Below are positions 42,001 to 51,000 of a stretch of DNA of 64,000 nucleotides, one piece after another. The position numbers were made by a program. The DNA is from an uncultured Methylomirabilota bacterium (GTDB lineage: Bacteria; Methylomirabilota; Methylomirabilia; Methylomirabilales; 2-02-FULL-66-22). Positions within the stretch are counted from its first letter, which is position 1, and each line of letters opens with the position of its first letter. Location of the stretch: positions 200,531 to 264,530 of the forward strand of contig CAWJSJ010000004.1 of NCBI GenBank assembly GCA_963845565.1, in the 5' to 3' direction.

Positions 42001-45000
42001 GATCACCCTGACACCGGGGACCATCTCGGTGCACGTCTCCGACGACCGAAAGGTCATCGTGATGCACGCCATCGACGTGGGGGATGACCTGGACGGACTG
42101 CGGCAGGCCACCAAGGATTCGTTGGAAGCTCCCATCTTGCGCTTCACCCGGGAGGAGCGCCGATCATGAGCCTGTTTCTCGTCGTCGTCCTGAAGGTCTG
42201 CTTGGCGACCCTGCTGCTGAGCGGTATTCTCTGCCTGTATCGGATGTGGATCGGCCCCAAGGCGGCCGACCGAGCCGTGGCCTTCGACAGCCTGGCCGCC
42301 GTCTTCATTTGCGTGATCTGCGTGCTCTGCATCCAGTGGAACTCGGTCCTGTACTTCGACGCGGTGTGGATCCTGATGCTGGTCGGCTTCCTGGGGTCGG
42401 CCGCCATCGCCATGTACCTGGAGAAGGGGCGGGTGTTCTGATGCCGACTCTCGCCGAAGTGATCGTCGCGCTTCTGTGCCTCCTCGGCACATTCCTCATC
42501 GCGCTGACCGGGATCGGCCTCGTCCGCTTCCCCGACGTCTTCTGTCGCATGCACGCGGCGGGGAAGGCCGGAACGCTGGGTGTCGTCCTCGTTGTCCTCG
42601 GGGCGACGGTCCATTTCGCCGGGACCGAGCAGGACGTCTGGATGCGGGGTGTTCTCGCGGTGTTCTTCCAGTTCCTCACCTCTCCCGCTGCTACGCATCT
42701 CTTGGCGCGCGCCGCGTACGTCTGCGACTATCCCCTGTCCGAACGAACCGCGGTGGACGAGTTGCGCAAGTATCTTCCGTCGCGCCCCGATCAGGTGTTC
42801 AACCAGGAATGATCCGAGGGGCATGGCCCAGCCGCCAAGCCCCCGGAAATGAAAAACCGATCAACCGACAACCGGTCAACAAGCTCCCCTGTTGGCCGGT
42901 TTTTCATTGTCGGTTGTCGGTTTTGACTTGGCTGCTGCGTCGGGCGCCGCTCAGATCGAGCGCAGGACGCGGGTCAGGATGGCAATGGCTTGGCGGTACT
43001 CCGCGAGGTCGAGGTGCTCGTTCGGGCGTGTGGTCGAGACTGGAATCCCCCGGGCCGTACGCCACGATGGGACAGTGCCAGGCGGGGCCCACCACGTTCA
43101 TGTCCGAGGTTCCGCTCTTGACCTTGAACGCCGGCTCCAGACCTTCGGCGCGAATCGCGGCCAGGAACGCCCGGACCAGCGGCGTGTTCTTCTCGGCTCG
43201 GTAGGGCGGATCGGCGCCCCAGAAGCGGAGGCGGGCGCCGAGTCGGGGCGAGCGCCTCGATCCGGGTTTGGACGGTCTCGGGCGTCTGGCCGAGGGGGAT
43301 GCGGATCGAGGCGCGGAGCTGCATGGACTCGGTCAGCCCGTCGCTTCCGCTGTGCACCTCGCGCAGGACCGGGTCCAGCGCGTCGAACATCTTCTTCCCG
43401 ACATTCTCCGCCTCGGCCCACCGGCGCACGCCGTTCCAGAACGCCACCGCCGTCTCGATGACGTTCTCTTCGGGGGAGGCGGAATGGCTGGCACCGGTCT
43501 CGGCCTGATAGGCGAAGACCAACCGGCCCTTGTACCCCAGCGTCACCGCGCGCGTGGCGCTCGGTTCGCCGATCACGCAAAAAGCCGGCCGACGCGTTCG
43601 CGCCACGTGGCGGGCGCCCTTCGAGCTGGCAGCTTCCTCTTCCGTCGCCCCGACCACCACGATCCGCTTGCCCGGCAAGGCGCCAACGTCGGCAGCGGCC
43701 GCGATGAAGGTCGCCAGCGGGCCCTTGGCGTCCACACTGCCGCGCCCGTACAGGTTCCCGTCCTCCACGCGAACCGGAATCGCGCCCGGCACCGTGTCCA
43801 GGTGGCCCAGCAGGACAATCTCGGTGGGGCCGTCGCCCAGGGTGCCGACGGCGTTGCCGGCCTCGTCCACGTGCGCCTGAAACCCGAGGCCGCGCATGGT
43901 CTCGACCAGGAAGCCGGCCAGCGCCGACTCCTCGCCGGACAGGGAGGGAATCTCGACCATGCGGGTAAGGAGGGCGACGGGGTCCATGGATCAGGCAGGA
44001 CGACGAGCAATGTAAAACCGACAACCGACAATGCAAAACCGGTCAGGGAATCTTGTTGGTCGGTTCTCGGTTCTCGGTTCTCGGTTTTGCATTGAACTAT
44101 TCCGCGCCGGCGCGCGGTCCGGCGCCCAGCACCTTGGCGAGGGCATCCACCACACGATCCACCTGCTCGCGGGTGATGACCAGGGGCGGGAGGAAGCGCA
44201 AGACGGTCGTCCCCGCCAGGAGGGCCAACACCCCCTCCTGCATCAGCGTCTGAGCAACCGGCCCGGCCTTGTCCTTCAACTCGATCCCGATCATCAGGCC
44301 CAGGCCGCGAATTTCGCGGATGCGTGGGCTGCCGATCGCGCGCAGGCGCTCCACGAAGTACGCCCCGATCTCCGCTGCCCGGCGGGGGAGATCCTCGCCC
44401 GTGAGGACGTCAATAGCCGCCACGGCCGCCGCGCAGGCCAGCGGGTTTCCGCCAAAGGTGGAGGTGTGCGACTGCTTCTCGATCTCGCCGACACGCCGAT
44501 CGATCCCGATGGCACCCATCGGGACGCCACCCGCGATTCCCTTGGCCATGGTGAGGATATCGGGCAGGACCCCGAAGTGCTCGCAGGCGAACATGCGACC
44601 GGTCCGGCCGAAGCCCGTCTGGATCTCGTCAATGATGAGGAGGGCACCCTTCTCGTCACAGGCTCGGCGAACGGCCTGCAGGAACTCCCCCGTGGCTGGA
44701 CGCACGCCGCCCTCGCCCTGGATCGGCTCCAGGATGACGGCCGCGGTCTGGTCGTCGATGGCGCCTGTGAATTCGGCGACGTTGTTGTAGGGGACATGGG
44801 AGAAGTCGGGCACCAGCGGTGCGAACGGTTCCTTGTACTTGCGCTCCCAGGTGGCGCTGAGCGAGCCCAGTGTCTTGCCGTGGTAGCCCCGCATGGCGGC
44901 GACGACGTGCTTCCGGCCGGTGGCCATCCGGGCGAACTTGATGGCGCCCTCGACCGCCTCGGTGCCGGAATTACAGAGAAAGAACCGGTTGATCCCGTCC

Positions 45001-48000: not shown

Positions 48001-51000
48001 AGAGGTCGATGGCCACGACGCCACCGCCGACGGCCTTGGCCGCGCGGACCGAGATCTCGTTGACCTCTCTGGTCACCGGGCAATTGGTGGCCACCCCGCC
48101 GCGCGCGGTGTTGGTGATCCAGTGTGGAGAGGTCCGGTAGATGGCGCAGATGGTCTGGTCCCCGACGACGAACGACCGGATGTCTCGCCCGTGCTTCTCG
48201 ACGTACTTCTGGATGTAGAAGATGCTGTGGTGATAGGAGCCCAGCGTCTCCTTGTGTTCCAGGATGGCCTCGGCGGCCTCGCGGTCGTTCACCTTGGAGA
48301 GCAAGCGCCCCCACGATCCCACGGCCGGTTTCAGGACGACCGGGTACCCAAGCCGCTCGATGGCCTGCAGGGCGGATTCGGGCGTGTGGGCCACCAGGAC
48401 CGGTGGGGTCGGGACATTGTCCCGGATGAGGGCGAGCGTGGTGAGGAGCTTGTCCCCGCAGGTGCTGGCGACCTCGTAGGTATTGACCGTCTTGACGCCG
48501 CAGTCGTTGAAGTACCGGAGCGTGTGCAGAGCGCGCGAGTGGTTGATGCAGCGCTCCAGGATGACGTCGAACTCCCACCGGCGCTGGTGGAGGTCCAGGA
48601 TGACCTCCCGATCGTCGATGCGGACGAAATCCAGGCCGCGGGACCGGAACGCGTCGAAGAGCAGCTTTTCCTCCTTGCGGACCAGCGAGCAAAGGATGGC
48701 GATTCTCATTCGCCCCAGTCCTCCTCTTCCTCCGGGGCCGGGGCCAACTCGGCCGGTTCGACACTGATGACTTCCAGATCCAGGCCGCAGTCCGGACACT
48801 GGATGATTTCCCCCACTTCGGTGGACGACTCCAGCGTGATCTCGGCCTCGCATTCCGTGCACAGCGCCATGGCAGTCTCCTCCTCCGAGAAAGTGTGCGG
48901 CGGGAGCATACCACGGACGGGACACCGCGTTCAACAGGATGAGGTTGAGATGAACGTTGAGACAGCCGGCAGGGGAACCCGCGAAAACGGAGGAGGTTTG
49001 CCATGTGCTTGCAGGCGTGCTAGGCTGCCGCCTGCTCGGAAACCGGGATACCACAGGGGGAAGTGCGGTGCTCAAAGCGGTCACCTTCGATCTCTGGCAG
49101 ACGCTGATCACCGATACGCCGGACGGGCTGCAGCAGGCGCGTGCGGGACGGGTCCGCGGGATGGCGGCGGTGCTCGCTCGCGAGGGGCACGCGGTGGATG
49201 GCGCGGCGGTGGACCGTGCCTACGACACGGTGGGGGAGCGGCTCGGGGCTCTGTGGGCGGAGCAGCGCGACCTCGGGTCCCGTGGGCAGGTGCGCATGCT
49301 GCTCGAGGCGTTGGAGCTTGCGGATCGGGTGCCGATGGATGGGCCCGTCATGGACGCGCTGGACGAGGCGTATCGTCTGCCCATCCTGGGGGCGCTGCCC
49401 GTGGCGAACGCCGGGGCCTGCGAGATATTGGCGGCGCTCAGCCGGCGCGGCCTCCGGCTGGCATTGATCTGTAACACCGGCCGAACGCCGGGCTCCATGT
49501 TGCGCCTCGTCCTCGACCACCTGGGCCTCAAAGCCTATCTTCGGGTGCTCACGTTCTCAGACGAGGTCGGTCTGCGGAAGCCGCATCCGGAGATCTTCCG
49601 TCGAACGCTCGCCGCCCTGGGTGTCTCACCGGACGAGGCTGCCCATGTGGGCGACGACGTCACCACGGACGTGGCCGGGGCGCGCGCGGTCGGCATGCAG
49701 GCCATCCACCTGTGCCATCCGACCGGCGCAAGTAAGCACTCGAACGGCGCCCCCTCGATTTCACGACTGGCCGATCTTCCTTCCGCGCTCGATATCGCCT
49801 CTTGACCGCGAGGCGTCAGGCGTCAGGCGTCAGGCGAAAGGGGCGGACGCCCGTTTTCCGCCTCCCCCCTCATGCCTGACGCCGCACGCGGCCGACCTAT
49901 GTCCTGAGTTAGAGGTTCGCCAACATATTGCAAGGCCAGAGGGGCACCCCGAAGACGCTGCGCCCGCGGGGCGGCCGGGTCCGGTCCGAAGGCCCCCGGT
50001 TTCCGGGGGCCGACCCGGGAGGCGAAGGCCGCCCGGTTCGGTCCCGACCGGTGAGGCGCCAGGCGGCTGAGGGGTGTCCCTCTGGCCGGGACATTGTCAG
50101 CGAACTTACGATTTACCACACTAGCTACTTCGCCCCCGGCTGTTTCTGGGCATCATGTTTCTGTTTGTAGATATGCCTCGACGCACGGTCCTGCTCCTGG
50201 TGCAGCCTGGCCCGCTCTTTCTTGGTCATCTTCCCGTCCTCGAGCGCCTGCTGGCGATCGGCCTCGATTTTTCCCTGCTCCTTTGTGAGCCACTGCGTTT
50301 CCTTGGCCGTCAATTCCCCGCTCTGGACGCCCTGCCCGATTCGTTCCTGCTGCCGTTGCTCCCGGGTGACAATCTCGCCGGCTTGAACCGACGACACGCC
50401 GATGAAGCCGACCAGCACTGCGCTTGCCGCCACCGCCGTCCATCGCACCTTCATGTGGTCCTCCTGGATCTTGTTTCGGGTTGCCCGGATCGGTTCTCGC
50501 TTCGCATTCCGGAAGGGTTGCCTGGCGCTACTGTCCACTTAGGAGCCGTTACGAAATAGCTTGTCCATTTTTTGTCATTTCGTTACGGCTCCTTATGCCG
50601 TTCCCGAAATTTCTCTGGTCAAGTCATTCTGTAACAACGGTTTAGAGTGGCGGCGGTCGAAAAGGTTGAAAGGCCGCATGACATCCGTGGGCCTCCGCGC
50701 GCAGGAATCTTTGTAATTCTCGGAATCTGCGGTGCCGTTGGTTCCGTCTCGGTGTCCTCCGTTCCTCGGTGTTCGCCCCGGATATCTCCCCAAACCGCTT
50801 GTCAGTCCTGGGCCCGTGTGTTAGGGTGAAACTGCTCCAGTGGACCGGGCGTCATCGGCCGTCCGATCGGCGACGGACCAGGGAGAGGGGAGGTTCCGGC
50901 GACATGGAAGCGCAGGCAAGCATCGGCAGCACCCTCCGCCAGCACCGCGAGGAGCGGGGACTGACCGTGGAGCAGGCAGCGTATCAGAGCAAGGTCCCGC

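Follow-up and report, generated by a model that had tools for sequence, protein, structure and literature searches.

The genome of an uncultured sediment bacterium of the Methylomirabilota (GCA_963845565.1) carries the six genes of a Thermus-type LysW carrier-protein operon with an aminoadipate (AAA)-type LysX, beside genes of both the DAP-lysine and the acetyl-ornithine routes, and we infer, with a probability of about one half, that the operon encodes an accessory module which may salvage AAA or 2-oxoadipate into lysine. Coordinates refer to the 64-kb window analysed (contig CAWJSJ010000004.1, positions 200,531-264,530). The window's own genome (G000) was compared with 20 congeners, most of them incomplete MAGs (completeness was 98% for G018 and 100% for G006), giving 21 family genomes in all, and the LysX family was searched across 251 Methylomirabilota genomes.

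The operon lies entirely on the minus strand in the order lysW-lysX-lysY-[hicAB]-lysZ-lysJ-lysK, so that the six genes and the gene order given in the initial annotation stood, although its description as complete did not hold for lysK, which is frameshifted in the assembly. The carrier gene lysW (48706..48870) encodes a 54-aa zinc-ribbon protein ending in EEEDWGE (TIGR01206, 61.6 against a cut-off of 53.2; PF21344), and the EDWGE-type tail and four Cys residues were conserved in 15/15 copies. Its stop is overlapped by the start of lysX (47870..48709), which encodes an ATP-grasp ligase (TIGR02144, 347.6; cut-off 275.6). The predicted LysW-aminoadipyl-phosphate reductase LysY (46796..47857), of the ArgC family, had 5eio as its best PDB match (E 1.5e-110) versus E 3e-66 or weaker for ArgC structures, and the separate, higher-scoring argC of the genome sits elsewhere. 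The predicted LysW-aminoadipate kinase LysZ (45466..46269) scored 399.5 on NF010659 (cut-off 223) and matched 3wwm (E 1.5e-87). The class III aminotransferase gene at 44097..45275 was above the TIGR00707 cut-off; its top model was NF042418 (LysJ), where its 528 bits lie below the cut-off of 700, and it was assigned as lysJ because of its position in the operon and the presence of a separate argD beside argB elsewhere. Last comes lysK (42951..43987), encoding an M20 hydrolase predicted to free the product from LysW. LysZ, LysY and LysK (the last judged on congener copies) belonged with the carrier-type enzymes rather than with ArgB, ArgC and ArgE, and the best PDB matches of LysX (3vpd, 1uc8), LysY, LysZ and congener LysK (5xoy) were lysine-pathway structures; 3vpd, 1uc8, 5eio, 3wwm and 5xoy are presumably all Thermus proteins.

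Upstream of lysW, a sigma-70-type promoter (TTGA ... TGnTAYnnT; 48905..48934, minus strand) ends 34 nt before the start codon, leaving no space for a riboswitch or leader peptide, and no Rfam match to a riboswitch or T-box was obtained at E<=1 across 42000-50000. The motif was present in 14/15 lysW upstream regions, the single miss being a region cut by a contig end, and occurs at 30 sites genome-wide. Two contigs from RNA runs (X15 and X18) span most of the operon genes and barely the HAD neighbour; such contigs cannot prove transcription, and X15 also spans an mrp gene, which makes the hint of expression weak. The neighbour in question, a divergent HAD-family hydrolase gene (49065..49805, plus strand; PF00702), is retained in three genomes without the operon and served as the flanking marker for empty sites; any role of it in the pathway would be hypothetical.

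Both other routes were recovered in G000 as the initial annotation had claimed, with dapA, dapB, dapL, dapF and lysA for lysine, and argC, argJ, argB, argD, argF- and argH-type domains and an argG motif for arginine. The reported split of lysA was also seen, one base being missing relative to two congeners. Across the family lysA was above cut-off in 17/21 genomes, including 11/13 congeners with an intact lysX, 12/13 of which had the dapB previously noted in LysW-bearing congeners. MurE carried DNPR, which we take to be the meso-DAP motif, in 4/4 family copies. Median dN/dS ranged over 0.115-0.188 for lysX to lysK and 0.113-0.182 for lysA, dapA and dapB, and the two lysine routes are under similar purifying selection. 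Replacement of lysA by the LysW route, with DAP made for the wall alone, was ruled out by the intact lysA of 11 of the 13 operon carriers.

LysX was above cut-off in 14/251 genomes of the phylum, all of family f1, and a LysX match was obtained in 14 of the 20 congeners, as reported earlier. The family-specificity previously proposed thus stood within the phylum, but the same pattern was found in other phyla: 14 of the 22 LysW genomes tested outside the Methylomirabilota had no detected homocitrate synthase, and four of those 14 have lysA. The 14 full-length family LysX proteins formed a single branch (support 99/93; sister branch 87/61). In one congener, G007, lysX is broken and an internal deletion spans lysY to lysK, the locus representing a decayed remnant; leaving it out, 13 congeners have an intact operon. 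Together with G001, G002 and G019 it makes up four separate losses with different scars, the sister of G002 (G003) retaining operon genes; the operon has thus been lost at least four times, a count from which three further genomes without lysX (G005, G009 and G012) were left out, their sites not being in view.

Between lysY and lysZ lies a gene pair absent from the earlier description of the operon, consisting of a hicA-like toxin gene (46562..46783, minus strand; PF07927 above cut-off), whose 3' end is off-frame in this assembly and which is full-length in 5 congener loci, and a hicB-like antitoxin gene (46300..46557, minus strand; PF15919, E 1.7e-5, slightly below cut-off), found at the same site in 7 congener loci with 73-89% identity to the G018 copy. 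In lysK, a three-frame match to a congener LysK placed frame shifts near 43241 and 43027 and the true end at 42951, the final ~90 residues of the 337-aa ORF being off-frame. The extra base at 43027 is missing in contigs of runs X1, X6 and X18; no read difference listed coincided with the break near 43241. Intact congener LysK was above the NF003367 cut-off in 3/3 copies tested. Of the 72 gene loci checked in G000, about 6, lysA included, appear split, and assembly error is therefore indicated; the lysK frameshifts are probably of this kind. A decaying relic, kept partly by the embedded hicAB, would account for the four losses, the split lysK of G000, G014, G016 and G017 and the occurrence of hicB in 8 loci, but this is very improbable given that dN/dS matches that of the DAP genes, the promoter is conserved, lysK is in one piece in 8/11 congener loci, five intact operons lack hicB, and the splits in G000 extend to genes such as lysA.

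The AAA signature of LysX, F-I-T-NS (F180-I190-T201-N256-S257), was present in the window copy and in 14/14 congener copies, and neither the ArgX-type signature (I-Y-V-GF) nor the haloarchaeal variant occurred in any family LysX. F-I-T-NS marks AAA-specific LysX (PMC12998189 Table 1). Because 188/279 LysX columns are invariant across the family, invariance of the signature is weak evidence when taken alone, and in Natrinema a signature swap failed to switch the substrate, the motif alone not fixing specificity (PMC10433800). Its best structural match was 3vpd (E 2e-94, versus E 1e-51 for 3vpb), in line with the initial annotation, which placed LysX nearest to the Thermus enzyme. LysX is the only such ligase in the genome, its matches to 5k2m and 3vpb being weaker, and among the 80 nearest LysX loci 38 have a homocitrate-synthase-like gene, a link that ties this LysX group to AAA. 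Judged from these sequence comparisons, the substrate is very probably AAA.

Where the cytoplasm contains no AAA, glutamate might instead be the module's substrate, and the result would be a second, carrier-based ornithine/arginine route. With glutamate, Thermus LysX reaches <10% activity, and LysW-Glu is a substrate for both LysZ and LysY (PMC12998189), while in haloarchaea, which have no AAA front half, an ArgW route coexists with the DAP pathway (PMC10433800). We regard this as improbable, since no family copy has an ArgX-type residue and argC, argJ, argB and argD are present; moreover, the change of Phe to Ile, which increases glutamate use in Thermus LysX (PMC12998189), lies one base away in 14/14 copies and yet was not seen.

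The search for AAA synthesis supported the earlier statement that the operon has no homocitrate genes and that no homocitrate synthase exceeds its cut-off, with TIGR02146 below cut-off in 21/21 genomes. A His/Arg pair found in 9/9 outside homocitrate synthases was present in no aligned family DRE-TIM protein (loci were available for some but not all of the 55 matches), a test that rules out LysS/Lys20/Sulfolobus-type synthases only; because NifV and AksA make homocitrate without this pair, an unrecognised homocitrate synthase is possible. As regards the NifV and AksA types, the G000 candidates scored 287 and 231 on TIGR02660 against a cut-off of 463. The AksA-like gene proposed earlier was taken to be the DRE-TIM (LeuA/homocitrate-synthase-like) gene at 10689..11921 (minus strand), about 31 kb from the operon, although the mapping of the gene number is uncertain. 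This protein is below every NCBIfam cut-off, has Phe/Val at the His/Arg sites, and returned generic names only in a homologue search; its best PDB match is the homocitrate synthase 6ktq (E 1.4e-45). Its gene occurs in 7/14 LysX carriers and 0/6 non-carriers, lies <=35 kb from the operon in G000, G016 and G017, is lacking from G018 (98% complete) and G006 (100%), and turns up in 17 genomes from families that have no LysX. As a general front end it was rejected on its distribution and missing His/Arg pair, and its suggested role as a stand-in homocitrate synthase appears unlikely.

For the later front-half steps, the LysN-like gene named in the initial annotation is real (18/21 genomes; 2egy, E 1.6e-76) but not pathway-specific, as it is also found in LysX-negative congeners, and its product resembles broad-range archaeal aminotransferases as well. 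G000 has AcnA and a single LeuC-type gene of the archaeal IPMI/homoaconitase family, above the hacA-family cut-off; members of this family can be bifunctional, and a bifunctional LeuCD in G000 is possible. The YxSPI motif of operon-linked dehydrogenases occurred in none of the four G000 dehydrogenase paralogues. An HD-PrpD-homoaconitase-dehydrogenase cassette with a fungal-type homoaconitase (774; cut-off 530) was found in G018 alone of the 21 family genomes, and a citryl-CoA-lyase/PrpD/HD front end was rejected for G000, which has one citrate synthase, no citryl-CoA-lyase-like gene and a PrpD match of 24% only. Also rejected was a keto-acid elongation cluster (DRE-TIM, aconitase, dehydrogenase and ferredoxin oxidoreductase), which is present irrespective of the operon (G001, G002 and G019 without it; G003 and G004 with it).

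These results bear on whether the operon belongs to a second, complete de novo route to lysine, its front half supplied by unrecognised or promiscuous enzymes such as LeuA or another DRE-TIM protein, the archaeal-type LeuCD, an IPMDH-like paralogue and the LysN-like transaminase. The wide occurrence of the LysN-like gene, the LeuC score, the DRE-TIM candidate with its 6ktq match and its restriction to LysX carriers within the family, near the operon in three genomes, and the G018 cassette are in its favour, yet we consider such a route rather unlikely: the DRE-TIM candidate is missing from G018 and G006 and common where LysX is absent, the family LeuA has ordinary Leu/Glu at both His/Arg sites, the cassette is confined to one genome, and G000 lacks the citryl-CoA-lyase alternative.

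A further possibility is metabolite repair, in which the module would remove AAA or 2-oxoadipate formed internally by enzyme side reactions or from oxidised protein lysine, lysine being a by-product. AAA arises from lysine oxidation and is an analogue of glutamate, and repair would fit the leaderless, housekeeping-type promoter and explain retention beside an intact DAP route. No internal AAA source was found in G000, however: lysine catabolism was rejected because the saccharopine-dehydrogenase domain, present in 12/21 genomes and not tracking LysX, does not occur there, and no lysine aminotransferase was among the best matches of the 11 class III aminotransferases scanned. With the operon also lost in at least four lineages, repair is an improbable explanation. 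G000 additionally has four aldehyde dehydrogenases, which were left untyped.

In the salvage reading that we prefer, the operon would correspond to the AAA-to-lysine half of the Thermus-type pathway, gained once in the family ancestor. By homology to characterised enzymes, LysX is predicted to load AAA onto LysW at its terminal Glu; LysZ would then phosphorylate the LysW-bound AAA, LysY would reduce the phosphorylated intermediate, LysJ would aminate it and LysK would release lysine. Cell-wall meso-DAP and baseline lysine would come from the DAP operon, and arginine from the arg genes. Because no conserved AAA-making route was found, the module most likely works only on supplied AAA, or on 2-oxoadipate via the LysN-like transaminase, most likely drawn from the surroundings or from the breakdown of other substrates. 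No AAA transporter was identified, and the single literature search made on AAA in soils or sediments yielded nothing usable.

The six proteins, LysJ by a putative assignment, the EDWGE tail, the F-I-T-NS signature and a separate canonical arginine pathway (PMC12998189) are shared with the LysW (AmCP) AAA pathway of Thermus thermophilus. Thermus, however, has the homocitrate front half and no DAP pathway (PMC3356886, PMC10433800), whereas here a DAP operon with lysA intact in congeners is combined with no recognisable front half and repeated loss. The haloarchaeal ArgW route of Natrinema gari J7-2 likewise places a carrier module beside a complete DAP route without AAA-making enzymes (PMC10433800), but there the ligase is glutamate-specific with another signature and the module supplies arginine, in contrast to the AAA-type signature and acetyl-ornithine genes found here. 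In Thermococcus kodakarensis and the Sulfolobales, bifunctional LysX/ArgX systems use this chemistry and carrier too but have a Y-I-T-NA motif or a second ArgX paralogue, as opposed to the single F-I-T-NS ligase of this family. In Deinococcus proteolyticus two lysine routes also met through gene transfer (PMC3356886); that lineage exchanged its AAA genes for the DAP cluster, whereas the present family retains both, with similar selection on each.

In the literature compared, the DAP and LysW-AAA routes are presented as alternatives (PMC12998189, PMC1963480): they occur together in none of 21 organisms (Table S1 of PMC12998189), and one model of early evolution has them coexist only transiently (PMC1963480). 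In a search outside which most subscription journals lay, no paper was found on DAP with an orphan LysW module, on LysW in Methylomirabilota, or on a salvage role (the lysW of PMC5584792 is an unrelated transporter name). The enzymes are ordinary and already known; the salvage role was not found described.

With both routes kept under equal selection and with four natural deletion lineages, this living family lends itself to testing why bacteria would retain a second route to lysine. Tentatively, and with somewhat less than even confidence, stand-alone LysW modules with AAA-type LysX may constitute a widespread, undescribed salvage system in DAP-route bacteria such as this family and MAGs labelled Binatia, Vicinamibacterales and Gammaproteobacteria, with either AAA/2-oxoadipate cross-fed as a lysine precursor in sediments and soils, or 2-oxoadipate made without a known homocitrate synthase. 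A hidden front half would mean new enzymology. If salvage is the true role, lysW-lysX in a genome would be no proof of de novo AAA synthesis, and aminoadipate would be a traded nutrient.

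The genes lysW-lysX-lysY-lysZ-lysJ-lysK form a real operon of known enzymes on the minus strand of the window: lysW (48706–48870), lysX (47870–48709), lysY (46796–47857), lysZ (45466–46269), lysJ (44097–45275) and lysK (42951–43987), with a minus-strand hicA-hicB pair (46300–46783) between lysY and lysZ. LysW, LysX and LysZ scored over their NCBIfam cut-offs, and LysJ was the best-matching model for lysJ with a score under its cut-off; the best solved relatives of LysX (3vpd/1uc8), LysY (5eio), LysZ (3wwm) and a congener's LysK (5xoy) are Thermus enzymes. The closest named record to LysX carries the label Methylomirabilota, and near-identical DNA came chiefly from wetland and freshwater-sediment metagenomes (at least half of words in 12 of 24 runs among those listed). 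hicB occupies the lysY–lysZ gap in the window and seven congeners (hicA was not found in G015 and G016, and G016 has an extra small gene ahead of hicB), and seems to have been inherited together with the operon. Tandem microrepeats of 7–8 bases occur at several gene junctions (42855–42922, 44016–44086, 45406–45461 and 49811–49836).

Aligned with a congener protein, the window's lysK runs through three frames, which change near 43241 and 43027; contigs of three sequencing runs (X1, X6, X18) do not have the additional base at 43027, the break near 43241 is not among the read differences listed, and lysK is whole in 8 of the 11 congener loci long enough to include it. The lysA gene of this genome (G000) is one base shorter than in two congeners, and a rough test flagged 6 of 72 gene loci as split, two of the six being this same lysA; the lysK and lysA breaks are read as putative assembly errors. 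A TTGA...TGnTAYnnT motif (30 sites genome-wide) ends 34–37 nt upstream of lysW in 14 of 15 loci and no Rfam match was found at the operon region, which suggests that the operon may be expressed without lysine sensing in a leader, though a trans-acting regulator may act on it. Contigs from RNA runs span most operon genes, a weak hint of expression.

PMC12998189 gives F-I-T-NS as the LysX motif specific for α-aminoadipate (AAA). It is present in the window LysX (F180-I190-T201-N256-S257) and all 14 congener copies, in a family whose LysX alignment shows no variation at 188 of its 279 columns in any case. Of the 80 nearest LysX loci (two of them family members), 79 have it in their main match and one has F-I-T-HS; 38 of the 80 carry a homocitrate-synthase-like gene. 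AAA is very probably the LysX substrate, although in Natrinema motif swaps left the substrate unchanged (PMC10433800); a route from glutamate to ornithine is improbable. Seven loci (L064, L073, L087, L097, L070, L102 and L104) hold a second LysX paralogue whose signature is unusual (F-S-T-GL, Y-S-A-GL, I-I-T-GF, I-I-A-SS, I-A-A-SC); some of these paralogues come with a lysW and lysK of their own, and they possibly act on other substrates. Tandem lysW pairs precede lysX at L028, L031, L032 and L033, three of these labelled Chloroflexus. In 32 of the 80 loci (L056:11968–12609 and 31 others among L039–L105), lysY and lysZ are separated by a gene for an EgtC-like Ntn hydrolase of 214 aa, and no lysK match was seen there; the hydrolase may free lysine from LysW.

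The coexistence of diaminopimelate (DAP) and acetyl-ornithine genes with the operon, claimed in the initial annotation, was borne out. This genome has lysA-dapA-dapB-dapL consecutively, dapF elsewhere, asd and aspartate kinase motifs, and argC-argJ, argB-argD-argF, argH and argG. Of the 13 congeners with intact lysX, 11 have a lysA and 12 a dapB over the cut-off; G010 (70% complete) falls short for both and G016 for lysA. All four family MurE copies have DNPR, which we take to be the meso-DAP motif. Two dapF copies over cut-off (C2:944907–945737 and 627685–628482) were also seen, as was another lysA-like decarboxylase gene, which is split (C2:2127853–2129053). Median pairwise dN/dS, by simple counting over up to 11 genomes in non-independent pairs, was 0.115 for lysX, 0.123 for lysY, 0.134 for lysZ, 0.135 for lysJ and 0.188 for lysK, against 0.152 for lysA, 0.113 for dapA and 0.182 for dapB. 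Given these similar values and the presence of lysA in carriers, the operon neither substitutes for lysA nor drifts where retained; that it is a relic is very unlikely.

No recognisable front half, the AAA-making steps from homocitrate synthase onward, is present in the family. The homocitrate synthase model TIGR02146 stayed below cut-off in all 21 family genomes, a negative that carries little weight alone, since an outside synthase linked to its operon fell below it too. When the proteins were aligned, two barrel positions, which we assume bind the distal carboxylate of 2-oxoglutarate, were occupied by His and Arg in all nine homocitrate synthases from outside the family; none of the aligned family proteins, part of 55 matches, has the pair. 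The AksA-like gene put forward initially, taken to be the DRE-TIM enzyme at 10689–11921, is unlikely to be a general stand-in homocitrate synthase: it has Phe and Val at these sites and occurs in only half of the LysX carriers (7 of 14), in none of the 6 non-carriers and in 17 genomes of other families, being absent from G018 (98% complete) and G006 (100%). The enzyme, which is uncharacterised, belongs to a family conserved across 25 of 251 phylum genomes, and its surroundings (10689–18288) hold a GntR regulator, a branched-chain-type ABC transporter and a facing amidase. The LysN-like transaminase also proposed is a real homologue but is not tied to the operon, occurring in 18 of 21 family genomes with or without it.

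G000 further has AcnA, one archaeal-type LeuCD, one citrate synthase and four IPMDH-like paralogues all lacking YxSPI, and no saccharopine-dehydrogenase domain was found in it. In G018 the homocitrate synthase model gave only LeuA and one far weaker match. That genome alone in the family has a row of genes for an HD protein, PrpD, a fungal-type homoaconitase (774 vs cut-off 530) and a homoisocitrate-dehydrogenase-like protein (L375:2570–7915), with no homocitrate synthase or citrate-lyase genes seen beside it. A cluster in G004 and G019 (L371, L372) holds a dehydrogenase, an aconitase pair, a DRE-TIM enzyme and genes named from sequence reading as acyl-CoA dehydrogenase-like and indolepyruvate-oxidoreductase-like; it possibly serves 2-oxoacid chain elongation and breakdown. 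NifV- or AksA-type synthases or promiscuous leucine enzymes may supply a front half, but a hidden de novo route is unlikely, and repair of AAA made inside the cell less likely still.

LysX exceeds its cut-off in 14 of 251 phylum genomes, all in this family, and the 14 full-length family copies form a single branch (99/93) in a 99-row tree, built without two duplicates and the broken copy from G007, that points to no particular donor lineage. Eleven of 14 congener loci keep the order W-X-Y-Z-J-K, and two others are cut by contig ends; in G007 lysX is broken, and fused remnants of lysY and lysK come after it. The flanking HAD gene is present in three of five LysX-negative genomes searched: beside it only the lysK 3′ end remains in G001 and G002, with different breakpoints, and no operon trace in G019. 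A six-protein tree pairs G002 (99) with its sister G003, where lysW, lysX and lysY are retained, and places the window's own clade sister (100) to G007. These scars and the positions of G002 and G007 indicate at least four operon losses.

For LysX, confinement to the family within the phylum, as initially stated, holds, but the configuration recurs outside the phylum. Among 22 outside genomes searched that showed no homocitrate synthase at their LysX locus, eight have one elsewhere and none was seen in 14. This count is an upper bound, since five of the 14 gave no match of any kind, LeuA included, two of the matches come from fragments that were left untyped, and genome completeness is not stated. 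Four of seven synthase-less genomes tested have lysA: G251, a single Vicinamibacterales chromosome that also carries a short dapB; G253, a single Binatia chromosome with dapF and dapB as well; and the Gammaproteobacteria G261 and G264. G254 combines homocitrate synthase, lysA and dapB.

By its testable features the family operon resembles, and belongs to, the Thermus LysW module, but it does not amount to a complete AAA pathway. Haloarchaea also pair a carrier module with DAP, but theirs makes arginine (PMC10433800), and in D. proteolyticus AAA was replaced by DAP (PMC3356886). PMC1963480 treats DAP/AAA coexistence as transient; in Table S1 of PMC12998189 none of 21 organisms combines the DAP and LysW-AAA routes with the canonical arginine route, and the available parts of bioRxiv 2021.12.28.474397, bioRxiv 2024.10.14.618325 and PMC5584792 held nothing bearing on this configuration. 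The enzymes are known; we did not find their arrangement described in the literature searched, which lay mostly outside subscription journals, and GapMind tables could list such genomes.

The reading we favour, at a probability of roughly 0.5, is salvage: AAA, or 2-oxoadipate that is first transaminated, would reach the cell from outside or arise by catabolism, and the module would turn it into lysine, leaving the cell wall and baseline lysine need to the DAP route. Such a role is consistent with the AAA-type LysX signature and the lack of a recognisable front half, with a promoter that has no leader, with purifying selection in the genomes that keep the operon and with its repeated loss.
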